A stretch of DNA of 64,000 nt from Candidatus Limnocylindrales bacterium. Lineage in GTDB: Bacteria > Moduliflexota > Moduliflexia > Moduliflexales > JAUQPW01. The position numbers and the translations under genes were made by a program. Location: positions 256,568-320,567 of the forward strand of contig DATMBG010000022.1 of assembly GCA_035559535.1 (NCBI GenBank). The letters run 5' to 3'. This document shows, one piece after another, positions 15,533 to 55,438 of the stretch (its first letter is position 1; every line of letters begins with the position of its first letter). Below the pieces are notes generated by a model. It saw nothing but the letters and a program-made list of their open reading frames with translations, made no database searches and was not told where the DNA came from.

Positions 15533-15584
15533 AACTAAAGTCGTTGCTACAAAAAATTAGGTGGCAACGACTTTAGTTATTTTT
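15533..15584 (+). terminator. Strong hairpin plus T-tract after the PQQ dehydrogenase (terminator or REP-like)
   Basis: AACTAAAGTCGTTGCTAC pairs with GTGGCAACGACTTTAGTT (18-bp stem, one G-U), followed by ATTTTT. Confidence 0.7.
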
Positions 15585-15607
15585 AGATTTTTAGACCGAT
15601 AAAAAAA

Positions 15608-17237: not shown

Positions 17238-20200
17238 ATGTTTAAACGACTTTTTATTGTTTTACTTTTCGTTGGAGGTTCATCCGGTCTTACTCTTACC
17301 GTTGCCCAACAAGATACCGCCCAGTTTAACAAAAACCCGGAACCCCTCAAGCTTTTGAGTATCACTCCTTCTGGAGAGGATGTTCCGGTCGGTCGTCAAG
17401 TTGTGTTCCAGTTCAATCGCCCGGTCGTGCCCGTGGGTCGGATGGACCGGAAAGCCGAAGAGATTCCTATTACCATCGAACCAAATCTGGCCTGTGAATG
17501 GCGGTGGTTGAATACCTCTGCTTTAGCCTGTCAGTTGGGAGAGAAAACGGCGATGGCTCCGGCTACACGTTACAAAATAACTGTACGGCCTGGAATCAAA
17601 ACCGAAGATGGCTCTACTCTGGCGGAAGAAGTCACCCATACCTTTATCACCCAACGTCCGAAAATTATCAATACCTGGTTTCAAACCTGGAAATCTCCTG
17701 GAACTCCGGAGATTCGGATTACCTTTGATCAACCTGTTACCCAGGACTCCGTGTCCCGGCACCTGTACTTCCAGACAGAAAAAGGTCAACGTCAAGCCTT
17801 GAGGGCTACGGAATCCCAGGACTCTGAACAGAATAGGGAAGAAGAAACCTTCCCGGAGGAAGGGCCGGGGGGGGAACAAATTGTCCGGGAAGCACCGGAT
17901 CGCAAGGGTCTGGATTGGGTAGTAAGCCCTCTTGAGGAACTGCCGCAAGATGCACGCATAGAACTTTACGTGGAGCCCGGTATTGTATCCAGGTCAGGAC
18001 CCGAACCCGGAGTCGAGAACCGGCTGGTGGTTGAATTCTATACTTTTCCGCCCTTTCGTTTTCTGGGTGTGCATTGTACAACCAATCAGGGAGAGGAAAT
18101 AAAGATTCCGGCCACGGGGGATCCGGCTCTTCAGAAACCCCAGACATCGGGTGCAGTCGGGACTCCTTCTATGAAATGCAATCCTGTGAAGGGTGTCCGC
18201 CTGGCGTTTTCCTCTCCGGTCATCAAGGAAGCCGTCAAGGCGGGTTTGCAGGTAACTCCGGATTTGGCAGGTGGTCGAAAAGATTATGATCCGTGGGAGA
18301 GTGTTGTTTCTTACTCTCGTCTATCCCAGCTCCATCAGAAAGGAGCTGAATATGAGATTTACCTGCCGGGCATTCTGAAAGCCAATGCGGTTTATCATCT
18401 CCAGGCTGATCCAGATCAAATCCAGGATGAATTCGGACGCCCGCTCAGTGAAGCCATTTCTATGAAATTTGCTACCAACCACCGACCCCCCCATTATCAC
18501 CTGGAACATCCCATTTCCGTTTTAGAGAAAAACGTCGAAACCCATGTACCTATCATCATAACCAATCTAGATGCCATCCATCTGAGCTACGAAACCTTAA
18601 CCGTCCAGGGTAAAAAACCGGAACAGAAGAAAACCCTTACCCCTTACAAGGTACGGAACATCGCCTATCCCTTCCCACTCAAGATACGGGAATTGATTCC
18701 CGGTGGTTCCGGAGCCATCCAGGGAACTTTGAAAACTACCCCTTCCGTGACCGACGAGGAAGGCAAGCCGCGTTGGTTCTTTTCCCAGGTCACACCCTTT
18801 GATGTTCACGTTAAGATAGGACACTACAACACTTTAGTTTGGATCACGCGATTTGATACCGGATTACCTGTGGAAGGGGTTCGCGTACAGGTCTATGAAG
18901 ATCAATTCGGCTCCTTTGCAGAGAACCCGAAAATACTTGCAGAGGCCGTAACCAATGCAGACGGCATTGCCATGCTGGCCGGTACAGGCAAGCTAGACCC
19001 GGAATTGAAGTTAATCGATCAATGGGACCAATTTCAACCCCATTTGTTTGTACGGGTTCAGAAAGACGATGACATGGCTTTGGTCCCTCTAATCTATGAT
19101 TTCCAGGTCCAATCTTATGGCGCCCATGAGGAATATATCTTTGCCGACATGAGGCGCCGTTATGGGCATATTCAGGCCTGGGGAACGACGGCACAGGGAA
19201 TCTATAAGGTCGGAGATACGGTGCAGTACAAATTTTACGTACGGGATCAAAGTAACGAACATTTTATCCCGGCTCCTCGTAAAGGATACTCCTTACAGGT
19301 CATAGACCCCACCGGTAAGGTAGTACACGAGGTTAAGGAACTGGTTCTATCCGACTTTGGGGCTTATGACGGTGAATTTCTATTGCCTCAGACCGGGGCA
19401 GTCGGCTGGTATCGCTTTGTTTTATCTGCCGTCTTTAACCCAAAGCAACCCGATGATAAAATGTCCTGGGAACCGATGCGGGTGTTGGTTAGTGACTTTA
19501 CACCGGCTCCTTTTCGGGTGACCACCGATCTGAATGGAGCTCTATTCCAACCGGGGGATACGGTTCAGGTAACAACGCAGGCTAAACTCCACGCCGGTGG
19601 CCCCTATGCAAATGCCCCGGCGCGTATTACGGCTTTTGTACGAGGTCGTCCTTTACTCCCCCAAGACCCACAAGCCAAAGGTTTTTATTTTGATGTTTCC
19701 CAGGGGGCAGATACCGAAACCTTATACCAAACCGAGGGTTTTGTGAACGATCAAGGGGTTCTGGAAACCCAATTTACCGTTCCTCAGGCCCAGATTCTCT
19801 ACGGTCAGTTAAAGGTTGAAAGCACTGTACGAGATGATCGGGGGAAAGATATAGCCAATGTCGCAACGGCCGGCTATGTCGGTCGGGATCGCTACGTAGG
19901 CGTCCATCAGGCAGATTGGGTGTTAGCCGCTGGTAAACCGGTCCAGCTCCAGACATTGGTCGTTAATGAACAGGGGATTGTCGTAGCCGGTACAGAAATT
20001 CAAATCAAAGTAGAACATCTTCAGACCAAAGCTGCCCGGGTCAAAGGAGCCGGTAATGCCTATCTGACGAATTATGTCCATGAGTGGATCTCCGTTGCCG
20101 GGTGCACACTGGCTTCAGAAACCAAACCGGTTGTCTGTGAATTTACACCTCCAGCCCCTGGGACTTACAAAATGACGGCCAGTATATCGGATACTAAAGG

Positions 20201-23135
20201 CCGTAAGCACAGCAGTAGCCTCGAACGCTGGGCCGTCGGTAAAGGAGAAGTATTGTGGGAGACCACCCCGGAAAATACGTTGAATATCTTTCCTGAGAAG
20301 AGCGAATACAAAGTTGGTGAAACTGCTCGCTTCCTGGTTCAGAACCCTTATCCGGGAGCTAAAGCCCTCATCACGATAGAACGCTATGGGGTACAGAAAA
20401 GCTGGATCGAGACTTTCAACGATAGTGCCGTCATTGTAGAATTTCCCATCGGTCCCGATCAGATTCCGGGCTTTTATCTATCGGTGGTCGTTCTCTCCCC
20501 GCGGGTAGATAAACCCTTGGATGAAAATCAGGTGGATCTGGGCAAACCTGCTTTCCGTATGGGATATGTTCAGGTACCGGTGAAGGATACTTATAAAGAA
20601 CTCCTGGTCGAGGTCAAACCCCGACAGGAAGTGTACAAGCCCCGTGAAGTGGCTACAGTCGATCTATACGTCCGTACCCGTGCAGAAACGACTAGTCAGT
20701 CGCCCTTACCACCCATAGAACTTGCGGTGACCGTGCTTGATGAGGCTGTATTTGACTTGCTTAAGCATGGAAAAGCTTATTTTGATCCTTACAACGGTTT
20801 TTATTATTTAAACCCTCCGGATCCCCTCGATTTGAGAAATTATAACCTGCTCACTCAGTTGATTGGTCGACAAAAGTTTGAGAAGAAGGGAGCCAATACC
20901 GGTGGAGATGGGGGATTGGGCCTGGATTTGCGTTCTGTATTTAAGTTCGTCAGCTACTGGAATCCGTCTCTTAAGCCCGATGCCAACGGCAAAGCAACCA
21001 TTCAATTCAAGCTCCCGGATAATTTGACCGGATGGCGGGTGTTTGTCCTGGCAGTAACACCCGAAGATCAGATGGGACTGGGGGATGGCCACTTCAAAGT
21101 TAACCAGGCTACGGAGATACGTCCCGCCCTCCCCAACCAGGTTACCGAAGGAGATAATTTCCAGGCCGGCTTCACTATTATGAACCGTACCGACATGAAG
21201 CGAACCCTGGAGGTTACCATTACCGCGGAAGGTCCCATTCAGGCTACCGAACCCGTGCATCACCGGCTGGAAGCCGAACCTTATAAACGCTATGTAGTTA
21301 GAATGCCTCTACAAACCGTAGGTGAGGGTGAAATCAAGTTCAGGGTACTTGCAGGGGATAATGTGGATCGAGATGGTTTAAAAGCTTCTTTAACGGTGCG
21401 TAAACGTCAGGCCCTGGAGGCAGTGGCCACCTACGGTACCACGATTTCCAATGAAGTTAAAGAAACCCTGGAGTTTCCCAAGGATATACATACAGATGTC
21501 GGTTATGTGAGTGTTGTGGCTGCACCTACAGTCCTGGGTCATTTAGAAGGGGCCTTTCAATATATGCGGGATTATCCTTATATCTGTTGGGAACAGATCC
21601 TTTCCAAGGGGGTGATGGCTGCCCATTATCTTCCTCTCAAGCCCTATCTCTCGGATACTTTCCACTGGGAGGAGAGCCGGGGTTTACCGGAACGGACTCT
21701 CCAACTGGCAGCCAACTATCAGGCCCCCAATGGAGGGATGACCTATTATATCCCACAGGATGAATATGCAAGTCCTTATCTGAGCGCCTATACGGCCCTT
21801 GCTTTCAACTGGTTACGGGCGAAGGGTTACCAAATTCCACAACAGGTGGAAGGCCCCCTCCATAACTACTTACTCGAACTCTTGCGTAAAGATGGGATGC
21901 CGGACTTTTATTCTAAAGGGATGGCTTCTACGGTTCGTGCCGTGGCCCTTGCTGCTCTATCCGGTCACAATAAAATCAATCTTTCCGATCTGCAACGCTA
22001 TCAGGGCCATGTCCGTGAGATGAGCCTGTTCGGTAAAGCCCATTACCTGATCGCCCTGACTCAGGTTCCCGGCACACTGAACCTGCAGTCCCAGGTCGTG
22101 ACTATGATCCGGGCCCATGCCAATGAAACAGGGGGCAAATTGATTTTTACAGAAACCCTGGATGACGGTTTCCAACGTATTCTGGAATCCTCTTTGCGAA
22201 CCCAATGTTCAATTCTCAGTGCCTTCCTGGCTTACGAGGATCAAAAAATAGAAGCCGGTTCGAAATCCACCCTTATCGGAGATATACCGTTTAAACTCGT
22301 CCGCCTGATTACCCAAACCCGCAAAAACCGGGGTCATTGGGAAAATACCCAGGAAAATATGTTCTGTATGAATGCCCTGGTCGATTTCAGCCGGGTCTAT
22401 GAGAAGGATAAACCCAAACTGACATTACAAGCCTTTCTGGACAATGAAAAACTTGGTCAGGTCCAATTCCAGGATTTTAGAGATCAGCCCGTAGACTTTC
22501 AACGCCCCCTTCAACCCAGCGATCCGGGCCGCAAGGCTACCATTACCTTAGATCGGGAAGGCACGGGTCGCATCTACTACGCAACCCGGCTGTTTTATTC
22601 CCCCTCTGAACCGAAAGTACAACCCATTAACTCCGGCATCGAAGTCTATCGAGAATACAGCGTAGAACGTAACGGCGCCTGGGTCTTACTCCAAAACCCC
22701 ATGCAAATCAAAACCGGTGAACTCGTTCGGGTTGATTTATATATCTCCCTCCCCGCCGCCCGTAATTTTGTAGTGGTGGAGGATCCGGTCCCCGGAGGCC
22801 TGGAACCCGTCAACCGGGATCTCGCAACGGCTTCTACTGTAGATGCAGCCAAAGCCACCTTTACCTACCCTAAGGATTCTTTCTTTTTCCGATATGATGA
22901 CTGGAGATATTTTGGCTATACCCTCTGGAGCTTCTATCATCGGGAATTTCGCCACCATGCTGTGCGTTTCTATTCAGAGTATCTACCGGCCGGGCGATAT
23001 ATACTGTCTTACGTAGCCCAAGCCATTGCACCCGGTGAGTTTACGGTTATGCCTCTACACGCGGAAGAGATGTATGACCCTGACGTTTTCGGACAAGGGA
23101 TACCGGCTACGTTGCGGGTGAATGGGGCTCCGTAA
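17238..23135 (+). CDS. Bacterial alpha-2-macroglobulin
   Basis: 1965 aa; MG domains, LPDNLTGWR, thioester motif YPYICWEQ, DPVPGGLE; followed by pbpC as in the known yfhM-pbpC pairing. Confidence 0.93.
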   Translation: MFKRLFIVLLFVGGSSGLTLTVAQQDTAQFNKNPEPLKLLSITPSGEDVPVGRQVVFQFNRPVVPVGRMDRKAEEIPITIEPNLACEWRWLNTSALACQLGEKTAMAPATRYKITVRPGIKTEDGSTLAEEVTHTFITQRPKIINTWFQTWKSPGTPEIRITFDQPVTQDSVSRHLYFQTEKGQRQALRATESQDSEQNREEETFPEEGPGGEQIVREAPDRKGLDWVVSPLEELPQDARIELYVEPGIVSRSGPEPGVENRLVVEFYTFPPFRFLGVHCTTNQGEEIKIPATGDPALQKPQTSGAVGTPSMKCNPVKGVRLAFSSPVIKEAVKAGLQVTPDLAGGRKDYDPWESVVSYSRLSQLHQKGAEYEIYLPGILKANAVYHLQADPDQIQDEFGRPLSEAISMKFATNHRPPHYHLEHPISVLEKNVETHVPIIITNLDAIHLSYETLTVQGKKPEQKKTLTPYKVRNIAYPFPLKIRELIPGGSGAIQGTLKTTPSVTDEEGKPRWFFSQVTPFDVHVKIGHYNTLVWITRFDTGLPVEGVRVQVYEDQFGSFAENPKILAEAVTNADGIAMLAGTGKLDPELKLIDQWDQFQPHLFVRVQKDDDMALVPLIYDFQVQSYGAHEEYIFADMRRRYGHIQAWGTTAQGIYKVGDTVQYKFYVRDQSNEHFIPAPRKGYSLQVIDPTGKVVHEVKELVLSDFGAYDGEFLLPQTGAVGWYRFVLSAVFNPKQPDDKMSWEPMRVLVSDFTPAPFRVTTDLNGALFQPGDTVQVTTQAKLHAGGPYANAPARITAFVRGRPLLPQDPQAKGFYFDVSQGADTETLYQTEGFVNDQGVLETQFTVPQAQILYGQLKVESTVRDDRGKDIANVATAGYVGRDRYVGVHQADWVLAAGKPVQLQTLVVNEQGIVVAGTEIQIKVEHLQTKAARVKGAGNAYLTNYVHEWISVAGCTLASETKPVVCEFTPPAPGTYKMTASISDTKGRKHSSSLERWAVGKGEVLWETTPENTLNIFPEKSEYKVGETARFLVQNPYPGAKALITIERYGVQKSWIETFNDSAVIVEFPIGPDQIPGFYLSVVVLSPRVDKPLDENQVDLGKPAFRMGYVQVPVKDTYKELLVEVKPRQEVYKPREVATVDLYVRTRAETTSQSPLPPIELAVTVLDEAVFDLLKHGKAYFDPYNGFYYLNPPDPLDLRNYNLLTQLIGRQKFEKKGANTGGDGGLGLDLRSVFKFVSYWNPSLKPDANGKATIQFKLPDNLTGWRVFVLAVTPEDQMGLGDGHFKVNQATEIRPALPNQVTEGDNFQAGFTIMNRTDMKRTLEVTITAEGPIQATEPVHHRLEAEPYKRYVVRMPLQTVGEGEIKFRVLAGDNVDRDGLKASLTVRKRQALEAVATYGTTISNEVKETLEFPKDIHTDVGYVSVVAAPTVLGHLEGAFQYMRDYPYICWEQILSKGVMAAHYLPLKPYLSDTFHWEESRGLPERTLQLAANYQAPNGGMTYYIPQDEYASPYLSAYTALAFNWLRAKGYQIPQQVEGPLHNYLLELLRKDGMPDFYSKGMASTVRAVALAALSGHNKINLSDLQRYQGHVREMSLFGKAHYLIALTQVPGTLNLQSQVVTMIRAHANETGGKLIFTETLDDGFQRILESSLRTQCSILSAFLAYEDQKIEAGSKSTLIGDIPFKLVRLITQTRKNRGHWENTQENMFCMNALVDFSRVYEKDKPKLTLQAFLDNEKLGQVQFQDFRDQPVDFQRPLQPSDPGRKATITLDREGTGRIYYATRLFYSPSEPKVQPINSGIEVYREYSVERNGAWVLLQNPMQIKTGELVRVDLYISLPAARNFVVVEDPVPGGLEPVNRDLATASTVDAAKATFTYPKDSFFFRYDDWRYFGYTLWSFYHREFRHHAVRFYSEYLPAGRYILSYVAQAIAPGEFTVMPLHAEEMYDPDVFGQGIPATLRVNGAP

Positions 23136-23149
23136 TGATCTGGATTTTA

Positions 23150-23251
23150 GAGGGATATGGGAGTATAGGGGTAGGGAAGTGTGGGGGGTGTGGAAGTGTG
23201 GGAGTATGGGGGTGTGGGAGTTTATTTTTTTACTCCCACACTTCCATACCC
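23150..23251. repeat. Intergenic octamer tandem/inverted repeat (GGGAGTRT family)
   Basis: GGGAGTAT/GGAAGTGT/GGGGGTGT units followed by complementary ACTCCCAC/ACTTCCAT units. Confidence 0.85.
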
Positions 23252-23265
23252 TTTTTATACGGATA

Positions 23266-25566
23266 ATGGATAAACGAAAAATATTTTTCTTTCTGGTTAT
23301 CCTTCTCCTGGCTATGGGTTTGTTTATCTGGAAAACGTGGGTTGACCTGCTTCCGCTGCCGGAATCTCTTACCCCGGATACGTTGGGTCTCCGTAGGGTT
23401 CAAGTTTTAGACCGTCGAGGCATTCCGCTTTCGGTTACTTTCCAGAACCCCTGGAATCTTCACCAGATAATTCCCCTCCATAAGATTCCTACCTTTCTCC
23501 AACAGGCCTTTATCCTGGCCGAGGACAAACGGTTTTATTTACATAGGGGTGTGGACTGGAAGGCCCGGCTGCATGCATGGGTTCAAAATCTGAAGGCATT
23601 TCGAGCGGTGCGTGGGGCAAGTACCATAACCGAACAGGTAGTCCGCATGCTGCATCCGCGTCCACGTACCTTATGGTCACGCTGGTTGGAAGGGATTGAA
23701 GCATCACGGTTGGAAAAACGGTTTTCCAAAGCTACCATCCTGGAATTTTACCTTAATCAAGTTCCCTATGCCCGTCAACGACGGGGTGTAGCTCAGGCGG
23801 CATACGATTATTTTGATCGGGATCTGGATACGCTCAGTGCCAAGGAGATGCTGGCATTGGCCGTATTGGTACGGGCACCCAGTCGATTGGATTTGAATCG
23901 GGGTACAGATCAAATTCAAAAACCCCTCACCCGCCTGGCCCATCGCATGTACACGGCGAAACTGATCTCCACCGACGTGTATCAGAATATTCTCCAGGAG
24001 AAGCTGGTGCTTAGAGAACCTACTCTTCCAGTTCAGGCAAGCCATTTTATCCAATATGTCCGTCATCTGGATCTTCCAACCTCCGGGTTACAAAATGGGC
24101 GTCTGCATACCACCCTGGATGCTTCGCTTCAGAAACGTGTCCAGGATATTCTGGATCAACGACTTCTGACTTTGCGCTCCCAACAGGTAACCGACGGGGC
24201 CATTTTGGTCGTGGATCATCTCTCAGATCAGGTGTTGGCCTGGGTCAATGGAGGTTCATTTTTGGCCGACACGGCTGGGAGTCAGATCGATGCGATCCTT
24301 ACGCCTCGACAACCCGGGTCGACGTTGAAACCTTTCCTTTATGCCATGGCCCTGGAAAAAGGTTGGACGGCGGCAACATTGATCCAAGACTCTCCCCTGT
24401 CACAACCTGTTGGTCTGGGACTGCATAATTTCCACAATTACAGTCAGCAATATTATGGACCTCTCCGGCTTCGGGAGGCTTTGGGGAACTCCCTCAATAT
24501 CCCGGCGGTACGGACGATTCAATTTGTAGGAGTCCAGTCCTTCCTGGAACGTTTACATGAACTCGGTTTCTCCAGTTTAACCCGATCTTCAGATTTTTAT
24601 GGGGAGGGTCTGGCGCTGGGTAATGGAGAAGTCACGTTATTTGAATTGGTTCAGGCTTATGCCACCCTGGCTCGGGGAGGGGTATTTCGTCCCCTGAAGG
24701 TACTCCTTGAAGAAATAGTTCCAGCCGAACCTCCCCGACGGATATATGGCAAAGAAGTCAGCTCGCTCATTGCCGACATTCTTTCCGATCCCCAGGCCAG
24801 ACGGTTGGAATTTGGGGAGGGTCATTTATTACGATTCCCAGTTCAGACGGCTGTAAAGACCGGCACTTCTACCGATTATCGAGATGCCTGGGCCATAGGT
24901 TTCTCTTACCGTTATACGGTAGGGGTATGGATGGGGAATCTGGATCGTCGATCCATGGATGCGGTTACCGGATCTACAGGTCCTGCCCTGGTATTACGTG
25001 GAGTATTTGCCGAACTTAACCGGTATGAAGAATCCCGGCCTCTTTTCCGAAGCCCCCAACTCACTCCTGTTAAAATTTGTCGTGTGAGCGGGCAACTTGC
25101 TACCCCCAACTGTCCAACCCTTCTGGAATGGTTTGAGCCCCATAAAAGGCCTGCACAACGCTGTCCTTTGCATTCAGCCCCCTCCTGGGAGGTGAAGGAA
25201 ACCCTCGATGAACCGGAAAGAACTCCGGATAAAGAGGAAACAACCCCGGTAAAGTTAGAAAGGAAACCGGTCAGGAACGACCTGGAGCTTATCTACCTGT
25301 TACGCCCGACCCCTGGGCTCCAACTGGCTATGGATCCCCGGATTCCCGATGAGCTGGAAGCCTTTCCTTTCCAGTTACCCGAAGGGATTCAAGCCGTAAA
25401 AGTAGATTGGATCGTGGATAAGCAACTGGTAGGTTCGACTTCCCAGGGGGAACGCCAGTTTCTATGGCCTCTGTCCCGAGGAATCCACAAAGCTCAGGCC
25501 AGGGTGTGGTTGAAAGAACAAACCGATCCCGTTGAAACCCCTGAAGTGGAATTTGTAGTGAAGTAA
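23266..25566 (+). CDS. pbpC: Penicillin-binding protein 1C
   Basis: EDKRF..H.GVD, GASTITEQ, QPGSTLKPF, SLN, KTGT. The start is moved to MDKRK because the upstream part of the ORF is repeat-derived. Confidence 0.92.
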   Translation: MDKRKIFFFLVILLLAMGLFIWKTWVDLLPLPESLTPDTLGLRRVQVLDRRGIPLSVTFQNPWNLHQIIPLHKIPTFLQQAFILAEDKRFYLHRGVDWKARLHAWVQNLKAFRAVRGASTITEQVVRMLHPRPRTLWSRWLEGIEASRLEKRFSKATILEFYLNQVPYARQRRGVAQAAYDYFDRDLDTLSAKEMLALAVLVRAPSRLDLNRGTDQIQKPLTRLAHRMYTAKLISTDVYQNILQEKLVLREPTLPVQASHFIQYVRHLDLPTSGLQNGRLHTTLDASLQKRVQDILDQRLLTLRSQQVTDGAILVVDHLSDQVLAWVNGGSFLADTAGSQIDAILTPRQPGSTLKPFLYAMALEKGWTAATLIQDSPLSQPVGLGLHNFHNYSQQYYGPLRLREALGNSLNIPAVRTIQFVGVQSFLERLHELGFSSLTRSSDFYGEGLALGNGEVTLFELVQAYATLARGGVFRPLKVLLEEIVPAEPPRRIYGKEVSSLIADILSDPQARRLEFGEGHLLRFPVQTAVKTGTSTDYRDAWAIGFSYRYTVGVWMGNLDRRSMDAVTGSTGPALVLRGVFAELNRYEESRPLFRSPQLTPVKICRVSGQLATPNCPTLLEWFEPHKRPAQRCPLHSAPSWEVKETLDEPERTPDKEETTPVKLERKPVRNDLELIYLLRPTPGLQLAMDPRIPDELEAFPFQLPEGIQAVKVDWIVDKQLVGSTSQGERQFLWPLSRGIHKAQARVWLKEQTDPVETPEVEFVVK

Positions 25567-28337: not shown

Positions 28338-28533
28338 TCATAAAGATTTATCCACCTGAACAGAGGTACACCGGACCCTAAGGATAAGACCGTAAGTGAC
28401 AAAGTCACAAATCCCTGCAAAGACCGGGCAGGTGACAGAAAAGGTTTCAGGTTCTTTTGATCTCGAGGAGGGACCGGGGTGATACCTTCCGGGTTTTGGG
28501 GGTTTGGTGACTTTGGAGCCGGAAAAACGGAAG

Positions 28534-30270
28534 ATGAAAAATCCTAAGATAGCTATTGTAGGGGGTGGCCTGGCCGGCCTTATGTCTGCCATTAAGCTGG
28601 CCGAGAAAGGATATGCCTTGAGTCTTTTTTCCCTTGTACCGGTTAAACGTTCCCATTCGGTGTGTGCCCAAGGAGGGATCAATGCCGCCAAAAATATCAA
28701 AGGGGAGGGAGATTCTCCCTGGCAGCATTTTGAGGATACCATCTATGGAGGGGATTTTTTAGCTAATCAGCCTCCAGTCAAAGGGATGTGCGAAGCAGGC
28801 CCGGGAATTATCGATCTGCTGGACCGCATGGGGGTTATGTTCAACCGAACCCCGGAAGGTTTGATCGATATGCGTCGATTTGGTGGGACTAAATACAATC
28901 GGGCAGCTTTTGCAGGTACGACCACCGGTCAGCAGCTTTTATATGCTTTGGACGAGCAGGTGCGCCGGTATGAGGCAGCCGGACTGATTAAAAAATATGA
29001 GGGTTGGGATTTCCTATCCGCTGTCATCGATGAAGCGGGAATTTGTCGAGGGCTCTGTGCCATGAACTTAACGACCCTGGAAGTTCGAACTTTTCCGGCA
29101 GATGCAGTTGTGCTGGCCACCGGAGGGATCGGGTATATTTTTGGTAAGAGTACCAATTCCATCATTTGCAATGGGAGTGCTGCCAGTGCCGTTTATCAAC
29201 AAGGGGCCTATTATGCAAACGGTGAGTTCATCCAGATCCATCCTTCGACCATCCCTGGAGAGGATAAACTCCGTCTCATTTCAGAATCCGTTCGGAGCGA
29301 AGGGGGACGGTTATGGACGTATAAAGATGGAAAACCCTGGTATTTCCTGGAGGAATGGCACCCAGAGTACAAAAATCTGGTTCCTCGAGACATTGCCTCC
29401 CGGGCTATTTATAAGGTCTGTTACGAGTTAAAGCTGGGGATCCAGGGAAAAAATCTGGTTTACCTGGATATCACCCATCTGGATCCCCAGCTTATCGAGA
29501 CGAGACTGGGAGGAGTGGTGGAAATCTACCAGAAATTTATGGGAGAAGACCCCCGGAAGGTCCCCATGAAGATTTTTCCCGGTATGCATTACTCCATGGG
29601 CGGGCTCTGGGTGGATTATAATCAGATGACAAATATCCCGGGACTCTTTGCCGTAGGGGAATGTGAATATCAATATCATGGAGCCAATCGATTAGGAGCT
29701 AATTCCCTTTTATCCTGCTTTTACGGGGGAATGATCATCGGAAGATCCGTGGTGGAATATACAACCGGATTACAATCCGGAGTAGAAAGTGTTTCCTCTA
29801 CGGTATTTGAGCGTGAACTGAAACGTCAGCAGCAAATAAACGATCAGCTCCTCCGTTCTGCCGATGGCCCTGAAAATCCTTATCAAATCCACAAAGAAAT
29901 GGGAGAGTGGATGACCCAGCATGTAACCGTTATTCGCTATAACAAGAACCTTCAAGAAACCGATCATAAACTCCAGGAACTCCTGGATCGATATAAAAAA
30001 ATCGGATTAAACGATCGCGGGAACTGGGCAAATCCTTCCCTTCCCTTTGCACGTCAGTTATACAATATGCTTCAACTCGCCCGTGCCATTACCATCAGTG
30101 CACTGGCCCGTAACGAAAGCCGGGGGGCCCATTATAAACCTGAATTCCCCAACCGGGATGACGAAAACTGGCTCAAAACTACCAAGGCCCGCTTCACTCC
30201 CCATGGACCTGAATTAAGTTATGAGCCGGTGGATGTGTCGTTAATTAAACCGAGACCGAGGAAGTATTAA
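28534..30270 (+). CDS. sdhA: Succinate dehydrogenase/fumarate reductase flavoprotein (Bacillus-type)
   Basis: GGGLAG, RSHSVCAQGGIN (FAD-His), EFIQIHP, SESVR.EG, HYSMGG, HGANRLGANSL, ESRGAH. Confidence 0.95.
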   Translation: MKNPKIAIVGGGLAGLMSAIKLAEKGYALSLFSLVPVKRSHSVCAQGGINAAKNIKGEGDSPWQHFEDTIYGGDFLANQPPVKGMCEAGPGIIDLLDRMGVMFNRTPEGLIDMRRFGGTKYNRAAFAGTTTGQQLLYALDEQVRRYEAAGLIKKYEGWDFLSAVIDEAGICRGLCAMNLTTLEVRTFPADAVVLATGGIGYIFGKSTNSIICNGSAASAVYQQGAYYANGEFIQIHPSTIPGEDKLRLISESVRSEGGRLWTYKDGKPWYFLEEWHPEYKNLVPRDIASRAIYKVCYELKLGIQGKNLVYLDITHLDPQLIETRLGGVVEIYQKFMGEDPRKVPMKIFPGMHYSMGGLWVDYNQMTNIPGLFAVGECEYQYHGANRLGANSLLSCFYGGMIIGRSVVEYTTGLQSGVESVSSTVFERELKRQQQINDQLLRSADGPENPYQIHKEMGEWMTQHVTVIRYNKNLQETDHKLQELLDRYKKIGLNDRGNWANPSLPFARQLYNMLQLARAITISALARNESRGAHYKPEFPNRDDENWLKTTKARFTPHGPELSYEPVDVSLIKPRPRKY

Positions 30271-30313
30271 CCCTATTCCCCCTTAACCCTAACCAGATAA
30301 TAATCCATCGTGC

Positions 30314-31063
30314 ATGGAGACAAAGACGGTATATCTAAAAATTAAACGGCAAAGGAGACCTGAGGAGGCACCCTATTGGGAGGAATTTGAAATTCCTTAT
30401 CGACCCAATATGAACGTGATCATAGCCCTGCAAGATATTCAGAAAAATCCGGTTACCCGGCAAGGACAGAAGACAACGCCGGTTGTCTGGGATTGTAATT
30501 GTTTGGAAGAAGTCTGCGGGGCCTGTTCGATGATCATTAACGGTCAGGTCAGACAGGCCTGTTCGACTCTGATCGATAAACTCTATCAACCCATTGTCCT
30601 GGCACCCATGACCAAATTCCCGGTTATTCGGGACCTGCTGGTGGACCGGAGCCGCATGTTCGAGAGTCTAAAAAAAATAAAAGGCTGGATTCCCATTGAT
30701 GGGACCTATGATTTGGGACCGGGTCCCAGAATGGCCGAATCTGAACGGCGTAAAGCCTATGACTTTTCCCGATGCATGACCTGTGGCTGTTGCCTGGAGG
30801 TCTGTCCACAGGTAAATCCCTTATCTGAATTTATGGGCCCGGCTGCATTGGGACAGGTCCGGTTATTTAATACCCACCCAACCGGACAAATGAACCAAGC
30901 AGAACGATGGGAAGCTATTATGGGACCCGATGGTATTGTCAATTGTAGTAACGATCAAAATTGTGTGAAAGCCTGTCCGAAAAATATCCCTTTAACCGAA
31001 GCCATTGCAGAGCTTAACCGGGACCTGACATTCTACGGTATCTTAGGATTATTGAGGAGATAA
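30314..31063 (+). CDS. sdhB: Succinate dehydrogenase iron-sulfur subunit
   Basis: CLEEVCGAC...QAC; CMTCGCCLEVCP; CSNDQNCVKACP. Confidence 0.95.
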   Translation: METKTVYLKIKRQRRPEEAPYWEEFEIPYRPNMNVIIALQDIQKNPVTRQGQKTTPVVWDCNCLEEVCGACSMIINGQVRQACSTLIDKLYQPIVLAPMTKFPVIRDLLVDRSRMFESLKKIKGWIPIDGTYDLGPGPRMAESERRKAYDFSRCMTCGCCLEVCPQVNPLSEFMGPAALGQVRLFNTHPTGQMNQAERWEAIMGPDGIVNCSNDQNCVKACPKNIPLTEAIAELNRDLTFYGILGLLRR

Positions 31064-49382: not shown

Positions 49383-50324
49383 ATTAAACAGAGTTTTACC
49401 CTTCGCGTTCTCGATTCAGATGCCCATCAACGGTTGGATACCTTCCTTGCCCACCGGTCCGATGTATCTTTATCCCGATCCCAGGCTGCAAAACTTATTA
49501 AACAGGAGCGGGTTCGGGTGAACGGCCGTCCGGTAAAGCCCAGTTACGAAGTGCAGGTAGGAGATTGGATTGAGGTAGATCTGCCGGAACCGGAACCGCT
49601 GGAACTCGTTCCCGAAGAAATCCCTTTAGATATTCTCTATGAAGATGAAGCCCTTATCGTTTTGAACAAACCGGCGGGCCTGGTGGTGCATCCGGCACCT
49701 GGACACCCAAAAGGAACCCTTGTCCATGCCTTACTGGCCCATTGCCAGAATCTTTCGGGGATCGGAGGGGTCCAAAGACCCGGTATTGTCCATCGACTGG
49801 ATCGAGATACTTCCGGAGTTATGCTGATAGCTAAAACTGATCAGGCCCATCAAAGCCTTTCTACCCAACTGAAGAATCGGGAGATCATCAAGGAATATCT
49901 GGCCGTTGTTCATGGAATTTTTAAAGATAAAAAAGGGACTCTTTCCACAGTGATCGGACGGCATACCCATGATCGTAAGAAAATGTCCGTCTTTACCCGG
50001 CAGGGTCGTCCGGCCGTTACTTCCTATGAAGTGATTGAAGAATTTCCCAATTATTCGCTGGTGAAAATCCAGATCCACACCGGACGTACCCATCAAATCC
50101 GGGTCCATATGAAATATCTGAACCATCCTGTGGTAGGAGATCCTTTGTATGGAAGAGGTGCTAAAGATCAGGCCCTTATCCAGCGCCAGGCCCTCCATGC
50201 AAAACGTATCACTTTTAAACATCCGGTAACCGATCACCCCCTGGAGTTTGTGGCACCCCTACCGCAAGATATGAAAAATCTCCTTGAAAAGCTGCGAGCC
50301 TCATATGGAACTCAATCTCATTAA
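49383..50324 (+). CDS. rluD: RluD-type (RluA family) pseudouridine synthase with S4 domain; probable ATT start
   Basis: RLD..L....SRS, NKPAGLVVHP, HRLDRDTSG, TGRTHQIRVH, GDPLYG, RQALHA. The first canonical start (TTG 49434) falls inside RLD. Confidence 0.88.
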   Translation: MKQSFTLRVLDSDAHQRLDTFLAHRSDVSLSRSQAAKLIKQERVRVNGRPVKPSYEVQVGDWIEVDLPEPEPLELVPEEIPLDILYEDEALIVLNKPAGLVVHPAPGHPKGTLVHALLAHCQNLSGIGGVQRPGIVHRLDRDTSGVMLIAKTDQAHQSLSTQLKNREIIKEYLAVVHGIFKDKKGTLSTVIGRHTHDRKKMSVFTRQGRPAVTSYEVIEEFPNYSLVKIQIHTGRTHQIRVHMKYLNHPVVGDPLYGRGAKDQALIQRQALHAKRITFKHPVTDHPLEFVAPLPQDMKNLLEKLRASYGTQSH

Positions 50325-51630
50325 ATTTAGAGTCGGTGGAGTAGATTTTGGAATTTCCGTTGAGGAAGTCCAGGAGGTTATCTTCTATCCTAAACTGCGC
50401 CCATTACCAAGACCTCTACCCCCTGTTAAAGGGGTCTTCGAATTTCGCAATAGCCTGATCCTTCTCGTGGATCTACGGAAAAGATTGGGATTAGACTTTA
50501 CCGGTTTAACACGCAATACCCGGGTGATTGTAGCCAGATTAACCCAGGGACTTACGGGAATACTCGTGGAATCCCTCTCAGACTTCAAACGTATATCAAC
50601 AGAGTCTCTCCTCCCTCCCATTCCTTTGGCCGGATTCGGTGAAGACCTTTTGAAGGGAATTTATTTACAGGACGATGAGATGATCCTGCTTCCCGATTTT
50701 AATAAGATTCTATTTTCATTTATCCGGATCCAGTTGTCACCTCCCAGCCTCTTCGATCGGATAGCCCTTCGACATAAATTTAATAAAGGTCCGTTAACTT
50801 CGATCCTGGAAGAAATTTATACCCACCGGCAGATACCTTTTTCGACGACGCAGGCCAAGATACTTGCCAGATCCCTGGATCTGCCTGTTACCCAACTTTG
50901 TAAAATAACCTCCTTCTATCAGCGGTTTCATCCTATCTCCCCTCCCATTGAGTCCCTTGAAAGCCCGAGAATAGCCCAATTTGGGGATCAGGAATATCTC
51001 CAGCTTTCTCAACGTTTAGAAGAAGAGGAAAGAAAAGGAAAATTAAACCTTCTGGAGATAGAATCCCATAAGGAATCCCAAGATCTTATGGAGAGATGGG
51101 ATAGTTTCCTGGATAGAAATCCCTTTGACTTACCAAAGCCGGGCCCTAAGCAAGAAGCAAGGAACAAGACGCGAAGTTTTCTTGCTTCCCACCTCTTACC
51201 CCTGGTCACGGATTCTGGGAAGCAAATCCCTTTAACCCGATATAGAGATTTGGCCCGGAGACTGGATCTACCTACCCCCCAACTTGCGCATTTTATCTCC
51301 TTCTATAAAGGAAGTAGGGACAGGAAAATGAGCAAAGAGGATAAAGGGGAGGCCGCTGAGGTTAAATCGAAACCTGAGCTTTCTGTTAAGACCCTTTCGG
51401 AAGATCTTTTATCCGATAAGAACCAACCCTTACCGGAGGTACTTTATACCATTCTGGACCGACAAGGCTCTATCACCCCTGAAGATATTCGATTTATCAG
51501 TCGGGTTCGAAACCTTCCTGCCACGCAAGTCTACAAACTGGTTTCCTTTTTGTACGGGACGGAGGTCATTTTGAAAACAGAAAACTTGACAAGGAACCCG
51601 CAGGCAGTAGATAATGCCGGCTATAAATAA
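50305..51630 (+). CDS. CheW domain fused to three NuoE/HydC N-terminal-like helical repeats
   Basis: CheW: F.VG..DFGI.V..V.EVI....L..LP......GV..FR..LI.LVDLR..LG. Repeats end in LARSLDLPVTQLCKITSFY, LARRLDLPTPQLAHFISFY and ISRVRNLPATQVYKLVSFLY. Confidence 0.75.
   Translation: MELNLIKFRVGGVDFGISVEEVQEVIFYPKLRPLPRPLPPVKGVFEFRNSLILLVDLRKRLGLDFTGLTRNTRVIVARLTQGLTGILVESLSDFKRISTESLLPPIPLAGFGEDLLKGIYLQDDEMILLPDFNKILFSFIRIQLSPPSLFDRIALRHKFNKGPLTSILEEIYTHRQIPFSTTQAKILARSLDLPVTQLCKITSFYQRFHPISPPIESLESPRIAQFGDQEYLQLSQRLEEEERKGKLNLLEIESHKESQDLMERWDSFLDRNPFDLPKPGPKQEARNKTRSFLASHLLPLVTDSGKQIPLTRYRDLARRLDLPTPQLAHFISFYKGSRDRKMSKEDKGEAAEVKSKPELSVKTLSEDLLSDKNQPLPEVLYTILDRQGSITPEDIRFISRVRNLPATQVYKLVSFLYGTEVILKTENLTRNPQAVDNAGYK
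51586..51615 (+). promoter_or_regulatory. Possible internal sigma70 promoter at the end of the CheW fusion gene
   Basis: TTGACA-N18-GATAAT. Confidence 0.35.
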
Positions 51631-51665
51631 AAGGAAGATATTTCTCAAAAGTTCAGGTATTCTGA

Positions 51666-51866
51666 AAGCAGATTTTAAAATTTTGGGGTGAAAGACATCC
51701 GGGGAGCGAGGGAAATTTATTTCCGGTTCTGAATAAGATAAAAAAGGAATCAGGATCTCTGACCCTGGATGAGGCTAAACATGTGGCTTCTTTACAAGAT
51801 ATTTCCCATGTCCGGCTTCATAAGCTTCTCATAGTTTATAACGTAAGCGTCCCTATGGAACGTTGA
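51666..51866 (+). other. Open frame lacking a canonical start, encoding a fourth NuoE-N-like repeat (small CDS or pseudogene fragment)
   Basis: Translates as KQILKFWGERHPGSEGNLFPVLNKIKKESGSLTLDEAKHVASLQDISHVRLHKLLIVYNVSVPMER*; possible ATT start at 51672. Confidence 0.5.
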
Positions 51867-51895
51867 ACGTTAGATGAACGGTCATTACGCTGATT

Positions 51896-53680
51896 GTGAA
51901 AACCCTTACCGATAAATGTTGTTCAAAATGCTGGGACAGTGAACTCCAACGCTGTCCGGTTTTTACAGAGTGCCAACCTCAACGGCCTTTGTCCCACTGT
52001 CATACAGATGAGGCTTGTATTCGTCAGCGTGAGGAGGTTGTCACCCGACTCCGGTATGGAGCCGGAACTTTGATTCGGGTTGGAGTGGGCACTTGCGGTC
52101 AACAGGCAGGAGCTTCTTCGGTATTGGGAGCTATTTTCATAGAACTTCAACGACGAAATCTTTCCCATGTAAGCCTTTCGATAACGGGATGTCTGGGAAA
52201 TTGCTTCCAGGAAGTTGTGGTTTCCATTTCTCATCCTAAATACCCCACCGTTCTTTACACCCAGGTAAGTGAAGACAGGGTTCCGTATTTGATTTCCGAG
52301 CACATCGAAAAAAAGCGTATTGCCCGGGATTTGGTTTTAGCTCAACTGGAGGAGCCCGGGAAAAAGCCTTTAGGTCATGTTCCGGTCTTCAAAAATCTAG
52401 ATTTTTTCCGAAAGCAGATCTGGCGCGTCTCAGAACGTTGTGGGCATATGGATCCTGAAAGCCTGGACGACTTTTTGTTGCATGGAGGTTTTCTAGGTCT
52501 TTCTAAAACCATCAGAGAAGCTAAGCCGCCGGACCTGTTGAAATTGCTTAAAGAATCTAAGTTAAAGGGTCGTGGGGGGTCTGGAGAAGATGTGGCCGAT
52601 AAATGGGCCCGCGTGGCTGCTGCAGATGGAGAGGAAAAATATATCATCTGTAATGCCCATGAAGGAGATCCGGCCTCCTTTAAGGATCGAAGGTTACTGG
52701 AAAGTGATCCCCTGGGGGTCATAGAGGCTATGACCCTGGCCGGATATACCGTTGGAGCCGGAAAAGGGATTATCTTTCTGAACCCCAGGTATGAACTGGC
52801 TAAAAAACGCTTAGAACTGGCCCTTACGAAGGCACGGGCCTTTAATTACCTGGGGAAAGAAATTCTCGGCTCGAACTTTTCTTTTGATATCGAGATTCGA
52901 TTATCCCCAGGAGATTACCTGTCGGGAGAGGAAACTTCTTTGGTTACTTTCCTGGAAGGTAAAGCCGGGGTTAGAAGGGTCCCACCTCCCTTAACCAGCC
53001 AGGGTCTGTGGAATCTTCCTACGTTGATCCACAACGTAGAAACCCTCTTGAACATACCCCTTTTGGTGGTCAAAGGGGTTGATTGGTTTCGTGAACAGGG
53101 TACCGGGAACAGTCCGGGAACTCGATGCTGGACCTTATCCGGATGCCTTCAACGGAGGGGGATCGTAGAAGCTCCCGTCGGTATTTCGATTCAAGATCTG
53201 CTGGATATGGGGGGTGGGGCCCTGCCCGGGAAGAAAATTAAAGCCGTTCATGTGGGGGGATATGTGGGAGGTTATCTGCCGGAGAGTCTGTTTCAGACTC
53301 CTTTAGACGACGTGTCCCTGAAAAAATCAGGTATTAGCTTGGGAATCGGATCTCTGGTAGCCCTGGAGGAAACCACGTGTATGGTTCATAAGACCTGGCA
53401 AGACGCTCTTTTTACGGCTAAAGAAGAGTGTGGTCAGTGTACCCCGGGGCGGGAAGGCTCTTATCAGATATCTCGATTTCTGGAGAAAATCTGCCGGGGA
53501 AGAGGAGTCCGAAGTGATCTTCAGAAGCTCAAAGAAATTGCTTTCTATATGCGGGAGGCTTCCATGTGCGCTTATGGGCGCTTTTCCCCTGGACTTATAT
53601 CCAGCTCTCTGGAGTATTTCCACTCTGAGTATGAGGAGCATTTGCAGAAGCACTGCCCGGCAGGGGTTTGTTTTAAATAA
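51896..53680 (+). CDS. HydB/NuoF-like flavo-Fe-S subunit with degenerate NADH/FMN motifs
   Basis: Cys-rich N-terminus, thioredoxin-like GTCG..GCLGNC, KGRGGSG, CNAHEGDP, GEET, HNVET, CGQCTPGREG, EH...CPAGVC; no C-terminal 2x[4Fe-4S] domain. Confidence 0.85.
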   Translation: MKTLTDKCCSKCWDSELQRCPVFTECQPQRPLSHCHTDEACIRQREEVVTRLRYGAGTLIRVGVGTCGQQAGASSVLGAIFIELQRRNLSHVSLSITGCLGNCFQEVVVSISHPKYPTVLYTQVSEDRVPYLISEHIEKKRIARDLVLAQLEEPGKKPLGHVPVFKNLDFFRKQIWRVSERCGHMDPESLDDFLLHGGFLGLSKTIREAKPPDLLKLLKESKLKGRGGSGEDVADKWARVAAADGEEKYIICNAHEGDPASFKDRRLLESDPLGVIEAMTLAGYTVGAGKGIIFLNPRYELAKKRLELALTKARAFNYLGKEILGSNFSFDIEIRLSPGDYLSGEETSLVTFLEGKAGVRRVPPPLTSQGLWNLPTLIHNVETLLNIPLLVVKGVDWFREQGTGNSPGTRCWTLSGCLQRRGIVEAPVGISIQDLLDMGGGALPGKKIKAVHVGGYVGGYLPESLFQTPLDDVSLKKSGISLGIGSLVALEETTCMVHKTWQDALFTAKEECGQCTPGREGSYQISRFLEKICRGRGVRSDLQKLKEIAFYMREASMCAYGRFSPGLISSSLEYFHSEYEEHLQKHCPAGVCFK

Positions 53681-53689
53681 GAGGGGAAA

Positions 53690-55438
53690 ATGGATCTCAT
53701 TTCGATTCTTATCGATAACCGGGAAATTCAGATTCCCAGAGGAATTACGGTTTTAGAAGCGGCTGAATCCCTGGATATTAAAATTCCTGCACTATGTGTT
53801 TCCCCAGGCTGGGGAACGTCCGGTTTTTGTCGAAGTTGCGTGGTAGAGGTGGAAGGAGAGGATTACCTTCCCATAGCCTGTAGTCTGCCCGTTCAAGAAG
53901 GGATGGTTATCAAAACGAACTCCCCCAGAGTACTTGAATCCCGTAGATTAACGGTGGAATTGCTCCTTGCCCGCCATACCATGGATTGTGCTGTCTGTTA
54001 TCGAAATGGCAGGTGTTCTCTCCAAGATCTGGCAAATACCTACGGAATCAAGGAATCTCGATTTCTTACCCGAGAGAAACCCCTGGAAATCGATGATAAA
54101 AGTCCGGCCATTGTGCATAATCCCAACCGCTGTATTCTATGTGGTTTATGTGTTCAGGCCTGTTGCGATATCCAAACCGTTTCGGTGATTGATTTTGCCC
54201 ATCGAGGATTCGACCGGGTCGTGGAACCGGCCTTCGGACAGAGTCTTAATGAGGTGGAATGTGTTGCCTGTGGGCAGTGCATCCAGATCTGTCCGGTAGA
54301 ATCTTTCTATGAAAAAAGCGAGATCGATAAAGTAAGGGAAGCCCTGAGAGATCCCCATAAAGAGGTTGTGGCGTTTTTATCTCCTTCGGTGCCGCTCTCT
54401 ATCGGAGAAGAGTTTGGAATCGAGCCCGGAAAGTCTCTCTCCGGAGAAGTTATAAAGGCCTTGAAAATGGCCGGTTTTAAGAAGGTTTTTGATACCGCTC
54501 TGGGGGCCGATTTGGTAATCATGGAAGAAGCTTATGAGCTGTTAACCCGCTGGAATTCGGGTAAAAGTCTCCCTCTGATAACCTCCTGTAGTCCGGAGTG
54601 GGTCAAGTTCGTCGAGCACTTTTATCCGGAACTCTTACCTCATCTCTGTCCTACCAAATCCCCCCAGCAGATCATGGGAACTTTAGCCAAGACCTATTTT
54701 GCCGAGATTACGAAGATAGATTTGAAAAATCTCTTTACGGTTTCTATAACTCCTTGTACGGCTGAGAAGTTTGAGCGGACCCGACCGGAGTTAAATATCC
54801 AGGGTTTTCCGGATATAGATGCCTGTTTAACCGTCAAAGAGGTAGCCCGCCTCATTCGGATGACCCTGGGAAACCCTTTTCCCGATATCGGCTCCGAAGA
54901 GTTTGATCAACCCTTCGAGGTCTCATCGGGAGCAGGAGTTATATTCGGAGTGGCCGGGGGGGTCATGGAAGGTGTGCTGAGGACTCTGTACGAGCTTAAA
55001 GTCGGTAAGAAGTTGAAATCGGTAGCTTTTGAGAATATCCGGGAAGAAGTCAGAACTTCTTACAGCGGAGGCCTTCGGGAAGTGGAGGTTCAAGTAGGAA
55101 ATGAAACCCTTCAGGTTGCTGTGGTGCACGGATTAGGAAATGCCAGAAGGATATTGGAGGCCCTTCGATCCGGGAAGAGCCGGTATCATTTTATCGAAGT
55201 AAAAGGATGCCCCAACGGCTGTGCTCAGGGGGGCGGTCAACCTATTCCAGCTACCCTTGAAATTATTCAGGCTCGAGAACGCGGCCTTTATCTAGAGGAT
55301 GAAAAAAGAAAAATCCGTAAAGCCCATGAAAATCCCAGAATCAAAGAACTTTATGAAAAATTTTTTAAAAAACCCGCCAGTCCCACGGCCAGAAAATTCC
55401 TACACACGGAGTTTACGCCGCGGGAACACCATCTCTAA
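53690..55438 (+). CDS. [FeFe]-hydrogenase HydA-like subunit with atypical H-cluster motifs
   Basis: 2Fe-2S (PALC..CRSC..AC), His-ligated HxxxCxxCx5C, two CxxCxxCxxxC motifs, TSCSPEW / TPCTAEKFE / EVKGCPNGCAQGGGQP, small-subunit-like RKAHENP..LHT. Confidence 0.88.
   Translation: MDLISILIDNREIQIPRGITVLEAAESLDIKIPALCVSPGWGTSGFCRSCVVEVEGEDYLPIACSLPVQEGMVIKTNSPRVLESRRLTVELLLARHTMDCAVCYRNGRCSLQDLANTYGIKESRFLTREKPLEIDDKSPAIVHNPNRCILCGLCVQACCDIQTVSVIDFAHRGFDRVVEPAFGQSLNEVECVACGQCIQICPVESFYEKSEIDKVREALRDPHKEVVAFLSPSVPLSIGEEFGIEPGKSLSGEVIKALKMAGFKKVFDTALGADLVIMEEAYELLTRWNSGKSLPLITSCSPEWVKFVEHFYPELLPHLCPTKSPQQIMGTLAKTYFAEITKIDLKNLFTVSITPCTAEKFERTRPELNIQGFPDIDACLTVKEVARLIRMTLGNPFPDIGSEEFDQPFEVSSGAGVIFGVAGGVMEGVLRTLYELKVGKKLKSVAFENIREEVRTSYSGGLREVEVQVGNETLQVAVVHGLGNARRILEALRSGKSRYHFIEVKGCPNGCAQGGGQPIPATLEIIQARERGLYLEDEKRKIRKAHENPRIKELYEKFFKKPASPTARKFLHTEFTPREHHL

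Follow-up and report, generated by a model that had tools for sequence, protein, structure and literature searches.

What does a full-length [FeFe]-hydrogenase homolog do once the residues that hold its diiron site have been exchanged? The question is raised by a HydA-like protein encoded in a 64,000-nucleotide (nt) stretch of contig DATMBG010000022.1 (the window; positions 256,568 to 320,567 of the forward strand), which belongs to the phylum KSB3/Moduliflexota. The gene stands last in a cassette with the order hydC-hydB-hydA, and both of its partners have been rebuilt as well. The explanation that in our view best covers all of the evidence, with a probability of about one half, is that the cassette encodes an Fe-S complex of HydABC descent that would be independent of maturases and would provide redox or energy input to chemosensory signaling. 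The parts of this explanation differ in strength. That the HydA-like protein is a non-hydrogenase with a new function is highly probable, and that the cassette acts as a CheW-coupled sensor is a tentative proposal to which we give somewhat less than even odds.

The H-cluster pocket of the HydA-like protein

The domain order of the HydA-like protein is that of M3-type [FeFe]-hydrogenases: Pfam assigned Fer2_4, a His-ligated NADH-G_4Fe-4S_3, two Fer4 domains, Fe_hyd_lg_C (3.2e-79 at residues 224-515), and Fe_hyd_SSU (4.2e-19), and gave no match to a PAS domain in the protein. When phmmer was run against PDB sequences, the top match was T. kivui HydA1 (8a6t_A, 1.7e-163), followed by A. woodii HydA1 (7q4v_A, 1.8e-148) and then CpI (about 1e-122), and the alignments were gap-free at all three H-cluster motifs. 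An AlphaFold2 model was obtained with a mean predicted local distance difference test (pLDDT) value of 77.1 and with most H-domain blocks above 85. Foldseek superimposed the model on 8a6t_A and CpI with template modeling scores of 0.81 and 0.82, respectively, within a range of 0.80-0.83 over HydA1 and CpI. We conclude that the protein, as modeled, keeps the hydrogenase fold.

A first-pass annotation, made from the DNA letters, had read the second and third H-cluster motifs (P2 and P3, or L2 and L3) as TPCTAEKFE and EVKGCPNGCAQGGGQP and had claimed Lys-to-Glu, Met-to-Thr, and Met-to-Lys replacements in a pocket with its P2 and P3 cysteines intact. The alignments to HydA1 and CpI bear out both motifs at their positions and identify the replacements as K358E, M353T, and M497K in CpI numbering. 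Canonical enzymes read MPC(I/T)(G/A/S)KK(F/Y)E and E(V/L)MAC(P/H)GGC at the same columns, so that the window protein departs from both the L2 motif, MPCxxKxxE, and the L3 motif, ExMxCxxGCxxGGGQP. The annotation had also considered that an adjacent Lys might take over the role of K358. The Lys that follows the P2 Glu is not a displaced K358, however, because it aligns with CpI K359, which is itself present in canonical enzymes. According to the excerpted text of PMC10147833, K358 touches the distal cyanide ligand together with P324 and Q325, M353 contacts the bridging carbon monoxide, and M497 lies 3.7 Å from the amine of the azadithiolate bridge.

The first motif (P1, or L1) reads TSCSPEW against the consensus TSCCPxW. 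The TSCSP variant of P1, which was noted in PMC3787301, was rejected as a mark of lost function, as it is common in canonical relatives. Because TSCSPGW is found in 86 of the 120 nearest matches and in A. woodii HydA1, P1 does not discriminate.

To follow the pocket beyond the window, 28 rows were aligned: the window protein and 27 of the 31 variant proteins described below (P0003, P0010, and the partial sequences P0025 and P0027 were left out). The alignment extends to sequences of about 52% identity. The cysteines C356, C507, and C511 were invariant throughout, as were P355, T357, A358, E359, K360, F361, E362, E503, K505, G506, P508, and G510, and position 354 was nearly always Thr, with Ser as the sole alternative. 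The same invariance held for every Cys and His that binds one of the four accessory clusters, and three or four H-site cysteines are kept, depending on the P1 of the member. We conclude that, in the aligned sequences, the diiron-holding residues M353, K358, and M497 are exchanged for a fixed alternative set. Because the ligand cysteines are kept, the alignment suggests a [4Fe-4S] cluster at the H-site that is joined to an accessory Fe-S chain and that carries no 2Fe subcluster. The first-pass annotation had suggested a salt bridge between the new Glu and Lys, and an ion pair of these two residues that is complete in itself and occupies the emptied pocket is plausible, although conjectural; a cyanide ligand would be repelled by the Glu.

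On the NCBIfam model for NADH-dependent [FeFe]-hydrogenases of group A6 (NF040763), the HydA-like protein scored 706.7 bits, under the curated cutoff of 765, and two canonical KSB3 HydA paralogs scored 895.6 and 838.2 bits; on the group A model TIGR02512 it scored 432.6 bits, over the cutoff of 405.95. The closest known system is the group A (M3-type) HydA of HydABC complexes. The HydA1 subunits of the T. kivui and A. woodii HydABC complexes share with the window protein the domain order, the fold (41-42% identity), the accessory Fe-S ligands, and the C-B-A gene order, and the A. woodii protein also has TSCSP at P1. The window protein differs from them in M353T, K358E, and M497K, in its score below the A6 cutoff, in the lack of maturases, and in its rebuilt partners.

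Distribution, selection, and maturases

The rebuilt motifs were found to define a clade. The pattern [TS]PCTAEKFE occurred in 31 of the 120 best H-domain matches, and all but one of these, a 377-amino-acid (aa) fragment, also carried E[IV]KGCPxGC (30/31). Six of the 31 had TSCSPEW at P1 and were 69-93% identical to the window protein over the searched H-domain, 23 had a P1 without any cysteine ([SA][SA][SA]SPAW), and 2 fit neither pattern. The variant was present in one copy in each of the nine genomes of the phylum that were examined (1013-1093 bits), and canonical HydA was present in six of the nine (569-605 bits on the same search). When one genome of each prokaryotic species was scanned for the pattern, eight loci with the variant were obtained; six were labeled Moduliflexus, Vecturithrix, or candidate division KSB3, and the others include UASB14 and UASB270, the KSB3 genomes of PMC4312070 (excerpted text). 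When 1.84 billion cluster representatives were searched with a profile, the clade was represented by a single protein, P0130, at 1060 bits; the protein ranked below it reached 643 bits. The top of that search was P0129, a protein of 4122 aa with seven HydA-like stretches (1929 bits).

Among the best 150 cluster representatives, Glu occupied the K358 position twice and Lys occupied the M497 position once. About 20 of the best 150 M3-type HydA representatives, including P0143, P0148, P0171, P0181, P0199, and P0223, carry other noncanonical P2 or P3 motifs, such as TSCLASKFE, TPCLARKYE with EVTSC, and SPCTAEKEE with EWMAC. These motifs suggest that the H-site has been lost or rebuilt on several occasions.

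A tree of 96 rows was built from the window protein, 28 variants, 4 canonical KSB3 paralogs, 13 hand-picked A6 matches, and 50 representatives of 540-640 aa. The variants formed one clade of 29 rows (Shimodaira-Hasegawa-like approximate likelihood ratio test support of 99; stem length, 0.32) with two subclades, one of 6 rows with TSCSPEW and one of 23 rows without a P1 cysteine. P0143, which is likewise noncanonical, branched as the sister of this clade. Recent duplication of the canonical KSB3 paralogs was ruled out as an origin, as these are not sisters of the variants. We conclude from the tree, the PDB alignments, and the NCBIfam scores that the HydA-like protein is an M3-type HydA paralog that is nested among bacterial group A enzymes of the HydABC type.

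Nar1 and NARF of eukaryotes have a hydrogenase-like fold with a [4Fe-4S] site and without a 2Fe subcluster, and the first-pass annotation had proposed a Nar1-like non-hydrogenase. The non-hydrogenase part of this proposal is supported, and the likeness to Nar1 holds as an analogy only, given the nested position of the protein in bacterial M3-type group A HydA. Searches here, in which no Nar1 sequence was compared, returned no relative of Nar1 or NARF, and all of the best matches were bacterial group A.

To estimate selection on the cassette, the ratio of nonsynonymous to synonymous substitution rates (dN/dS) was calculated against a 95%-identical relative, L013. The ratio was 0.076 for the HydA-like gene, 0.116 for the HydB-like gene, and 0.077 for a neighboring ABC ATPase gene. 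In an independent run, X2, contigs were identical over parts of the cassette, and P2 and P3 lay outside the covered parts. We conclude that, by these ratios and by the conservation of the motifs, the rebuilt pocket is fixed by purifying selection across the clade.

The genome of the window (5.6 Mb; 95.76% complete) has this gene as its sole Fe_hyd_lg_C match. HydE, HydF, and HydG gave no match over the cutoff in that genome, with best scores of 47.5, 103.9, and 24.7 bits versus cutoffs of 254.6, 325.55, and 312.15, and control genomes gave matches. Two further genomes, G001 and G004, contain the variant HydA only and no maturases, and another two, G003 and G005, contain the variant together with two canonical HydA paralogs and a hydEFG cluster. 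HydG was found in three of the nine genomes overall. The variant is universal and constrained and the maturases are patchy; therefore, the pattern supports independence from maturases, such that the HydA-like protein would need no HydEFG. The genome check for hydE, hydF, and hydG that the first-pass annotation had called for thus came back empty, and its doubt that the protein binds a 2Fe subcluster was well placed: without HydEFG in the genome, and with the variant under purifying selection in maturase-free genomes, a 2Fe subcluster or H2 turnover is very unlikely. The annotation did not see the phylum-wide clade, the loss of the P1 cysteine in most members, or the rebuilt HydB and HydC neighbors. 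We note that the canonical paralogs of the maturase-poor genomes G002/G013 and G011 (loci L021, L027, L033, and L034) read TSCCPGW or TSCSPGW, MPC..KK.E, and E.M.C.

The distribution bears on how these genomes are read. Because automatic annotation labels clade members "iron-only hydrogenase group A," metabolic reconstructions of the phylum would credit H2 metabolism to genomes that have neither a catalytic hydrogenase nor maturases. Hydrogenase surveys commonly drop sequences that lack the L1-L3 motifs, as stated for Hyt in the excerpted text of PMC6085437. The cassette also amounts to a clean natural experiment: it shows which second-sphere residues change when a protein gives up the diiron site and yet retains its fold, its Fe-S chain, and a portion of the proton path.

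The rebuilt partners and a proposed complex

The HydB-like protein aligned with bifurcating NuoF-type subunits (7t2r_B, 7e-129; A. woodii HydB, 8e-118; and also 9n5u_B), and on the nuoF_fam model it scored 332.9 bits versus 512 for canonical KSB3 HydB. Nine variant and two canonical KSB3 HydB proteins were aligned, and invariance was counted from eight rows. Residues C8, C9, C12, C20, C26, C35, C41, and H36 of an added Cys-rich N-terminal prefix were invariant in all eight HydB-like rows. The flavin mononucleotide (FMN) loop is altered, as GFPTG was kept in none of the nine variant proteins, and SPGDYLSGEETSL stands at the place of the canonical GAGAF[IV]CGEETAL. The C-terminal 2x[4Fe-4S] (ferredoxin) domain is absent, and the cysteines of the N-terminal thioredoxin-like domain survive in the subclade of the window only. 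The features by which HydB of the HydABC/Bfu type is recognized, namely, canonical FMN/NADH motifs, a complement of four N3 cysteines, and a 2x[4Fe-4S] domain at the C-terminus, are thus changed or absent in the HydB-like protein.

The HydC-like gene encodes a fusion to CheW. Pfam CheW matched the fusion at 7.7e-25 (87.6 bits versus a gathering score of 23.5), and the CheW equivalog model gave 41.6 bits versus a cutoff of 260. The CheW domain has an intact signature and aligns over its whole length with stand-alone CheW proteins of the same genome, from which the fusion differs in being joined to three or four HydC-type helical repeats. The 2Fe-2S_thioredx model was matched at profile positions 11-54 of 145 only, and neither the thioredoxin-like [2Fe-2S] domain that marks HydC of HydABC nor any other Cys-bearing domain was found in the fusion. 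Relatives share the same architecture: the fusion occurs once, adjoining variant hydA, in all nine genomes of the phylum, and database searches with a restricted vocabulary returned 11 CheW-HydC fusions, all inside this clade. At least 8 receptors are encoded in the window genome, along with about 15 CheW-domain frames, a few of which are as long as CheA.

Relative to a 527-aa relative, the fourth helical repeat of the fusion is cut off by a TAA codon at 51628-51630 and a 1-nt deletion. A contig of X2 covers 51619-51786 with 0 differences and so reproduces the truncation. The short form was also found in P0121, P0124, and P0126, and other full-length relatives carry the fourth repeat. In HydABC, the four-helix bundle of HydC is located at the HydB/HydA interface (PMC10021017, excerpted text). 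A complex prediction for HydB-like residues 1-594 with fusion residues 140-448 gave a score of 0.00, which is neutral as to binding.

Two other classes of hydrogenase-derived proteins invite comparison. HylA of the HylABC-FdhF2 system is likewise a HydA homolog without a functional H-cluster site in a HydABC-like module, and it differs in that, in the excerpted text of PMC6085437, L1-L3 are described as absent altogether and the protein as working with a formate dehydrogenase, whereas the motifs in the window form a conserved alternative. The partners that mark a HylA-type system, FdhF2 with intact HylB and HylC, were not found, as no formate dehydrogenase is adjacent and HydB and HydC are rebuilt. 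The HydS proteins of groups C and D are hydrogenase derived and have been proposed to serve signaling rather than metabolism (PMC10407848, excerpted text). They differ in that they keep the H-cluster and turn over H2, with PAS domains in group C; the window protein has no PAS domain and has altered L2 and L3, and the signaling domain of its cassette is the CheW on the HydC-like neighbor. We conclude that the window protein resembles HylA and Nar1, by analogy, as a putative hydrogenase-derived non-hydrogenase, resembles HydS in a possible signaling role, and would be a member of none of these.

Because the HydC-like neighbor has been rebuilt into a CheW fusion, a role in signaling is suggested. 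In the proposed mechanism, the CheW-fusion, HydB-like, and HydA-like proteins would form a HydABC-like complex, in which the signal would be either the redox state of the Fe-S chain or the binding of a ligand at the rebuilt pocket. The CheW domain would then relay the signal to CheA and receptor arrays, and the outcome would be cytoplasmic redox or energy input to chemosensory signaling. If the CheW link is true, it would be a new route for redox information into chemotaxis-like arrays. A bolder form, which we offer as speculative and consider unlikely as a whole, is that an entire HydABC complex now serves these filamentous bacteria as a receptor-independent chemosensory input, with an H-site that reads redox state or a ligand through its Glu and Lys, perhaps with a three-Cys [4Fe-4S] cluster in most members, and with the CheW on the HydC docking helices plugging into arrays. 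In the literature searched, neither this clade nor a CheW-HydC fusion is described; the nearest is one sentence in the excerpted text of Sekiguchi et al., which raises KSB3 hydrogenase genes acting in signal transduction and chemotaxis (PMC4312070). Three features appear to be new: an alternative form of the pocket that is conserved, the concerted remodeling of every HydABC subunit, and the grafting of a CheW domain.

Several observations weigh against a maturase-independent signaling complex. Catalytic-site residues are kept, namely, the counterparts of CpI E279, R286, and P324 and, in the window protein, also those of E282, Q325, and F417; such catalytic and proton-path residues would be unexpected in a filled-in pocket and may leave room for chemistry there. 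Maturase absence is no clean discriminator in the phylum, because canonical HydA occurs without HydE, HydF, and HydG in G002/G013 (96% complete) and without HydG in G011 (97% complete). At all loci examined the cassette lies among housekeeping genes, with no che operon. Moreover, the probable cluster content of the HydA-like protein is read from its ligand cysteines, that the HydB-like protein apparently no longer binds FMN is read from its motifs, and the binding of the three proteins to one another and to CheA or receptors is something that we infer.

The alternative that survives best, though we consider it unlikely, is that the HydA-like protein serves solely as a scaffold or for electron transfer, like HylA or Nar1, with its catalytic partner encoded elsewhere, the Glu359-Lys505 salt bridge as a filler, and CheW as a mere adaptor. 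The invariance of the accessory-cluster ligands and of three H-site cysteines, together with the absence of maturases from the window genome, is consistent with such a subunit, and a precedent is provided by HylA, which has no L1-L3 and for which a role in electron transfer has been proposed (PMC6085437, excerpted text). However, no formate dehydrogenase, molybdopterin oxidoreductase, or other catalytic subunit was found beside the cassette in the window or at three distant loci, and a HydB-like protein without the canonical FMN loop and one N3 cysteine makes the usual entry of electrons from NADH doubtful. Moreover, E359 and K505 are invariant and position 354 is restricted to Thr or Ser over the full depth of the alignment, which is strict for a simple filler.

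The same invariance, which extends to G506 and the surrounding motif and nearly so to T354, would suit a new enzyme or ligand sensor, in which an H-site [4Fe-4S] cluster binds a small molecule, Glu359 and Lys505 serve as an acid-base or binding pair, and electrons pass through the Fe-S chain. We regard this alternative as improbable. The kept counterparts of CpI E279, R286, and P324 would fit it, as would the cysteine-free P1 of 23 of the 31 clade proteins, since the cluster in that subclade could have only three Cys ligands. The P1 cysteine is kept, however, in the window's own subclade, no substrate-related genes are conserved near the cassette at the loci examined, and catalysis alone would leave the conserved CheW fusion unexplained.

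It is very improbable that the protein has remained an [FeFe]-hydrogenase or an H2 sensor whose second coordination sphere is simply unusual. The complete hydrogenase fold, the TIGR02512 score over the cutoff, and the presence of HydG in three of the nine genomes speak for it; the window genome and two other variant-only genomes lack HydEFG, however, the Lys at the distal cyanide has become an acidic residue, both pocket Met residues are replaced, the P1 cysteine is absent in most members, and there is no PAS domain. Decay to a pseudogene, or a sequencing or assembly error (sequencing errors were raised in the first-pass annotation), finds some support in the stop codon and 1-nt deletion of the CheW-fusion gene; both can be dismissed, as the hydA frame is intact with a dN/dS of 0.076, the motifs are common to 31 of 120 proteins and nine of nine genomes, and the upstream truncation is reproduced in the independent run and recurs in other members.

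Cassette features and the rest of the window

Coordinates of the cassette and of its motifs are collected in Table 1.

Table 1. Features of the variant hydCBA cassette and the gene preceding it, in window positions
Feature	Position	Strand	Remarks
rluD-type pseudouridine synthase	49434..50324	+	Pfam PseudoU_synth_2 and S4; 41-nt overlap with start of next gene
HydC remnant: CheW domain (residues 13-143) and three NuoE/HydC N-terminal helical repeats	50284..51630	+	
Untranslated remnant of fourth helical repeat	51631..51895	+	DNA alignment with L013
HydB-like (NuoF-like) protein	51896..53680	+	Pfam Complex1_51K and NADH_4Fe-4S; cofactor sites rebuilt
CCxxC Cys-rich prefix of HydB-like protein (residues 1-52)	51896..52051	+	NF040902 NuoF_pre_CCxxC, 32.7 bits, under cutoff of 45
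Altered FMN loop GRGGSGEDVADKW	52568..52606	+	Canonical GRGG[AG]GFPTGxKW
NAHEG replacing canonical NADEG, nucleotide/FMN site	52652..52666	+	H255 invariant 8/8; D in both canonical KSB3 HydB
N3-cluster motif CGQCTPG	53429..53449	+	Third Cys of CxxCxxC is Gly; G518 invariant
HydA-like protein	53690..55438	+	582 aa; intact frame, full-length HydA homolog
P1/L1 motif TSCSPEW	54581..54601	+	PDB alignments; best 120 database matches
P2/L2 motif TPCTAEKFE (residues 354-362)	54749..54775	+	M353T and K358E, CpI numbering
P3/L3 motif EVKGCPNGCAQGGGQP (residues 503-518)	55196..55243	+	M497K, CpI numbering

The order rluD, CheW-fusion gene, NuoF-like gene, and variant hydA was found at eight of eight related loci. 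Upstream of the cassette lie rho and rluD, and downstream lies either an ABC transporter or an epimerase with nrdD and nrdR. In the phylum's other family (L014, L017, and L019), rho precedes the cassette, and genes for a NAD-dependent epimerase, an NrdD-like reductase, NrdR, and a class II ribonucleotide reductase come after it, in a conserved neighborhood of housekeeping character. A che-operon context was ruled out, as no che genes were found beside the cassette in the window or at the distant loci. A sigma-70-like site, TTGACA, 18 nt, GATAAT (11 of 12 positions), lies at 51586-51615, inside the end of the CheW-fusion gene and upstream of the HydB-like gene; the number of sigma-70-like sites in the region was no higher than in shuffled sequence.

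Elsewhere in the window, a gene for a pyrroloquinoline quinone (PQQ)-dependent dehydrogenase is followed by a sulfocyanin-like cupredoxin gene (13734-16186), and succinate dehydrogenase genes lie at 28504-31060. The PQQ-dependent dehydrogenase with the cupredoxin, and the succinate dehydrogenase, hint that the organism, unlike the KSB3 members described, does not live strictly by fermentation. Between these two groups of genes, at 17238-25563, a gene for a bacterial alpha-2-macroglobulin of 1965 aa is followed directly by a gene for a bifunctional transglycosylase/transpeptidase.

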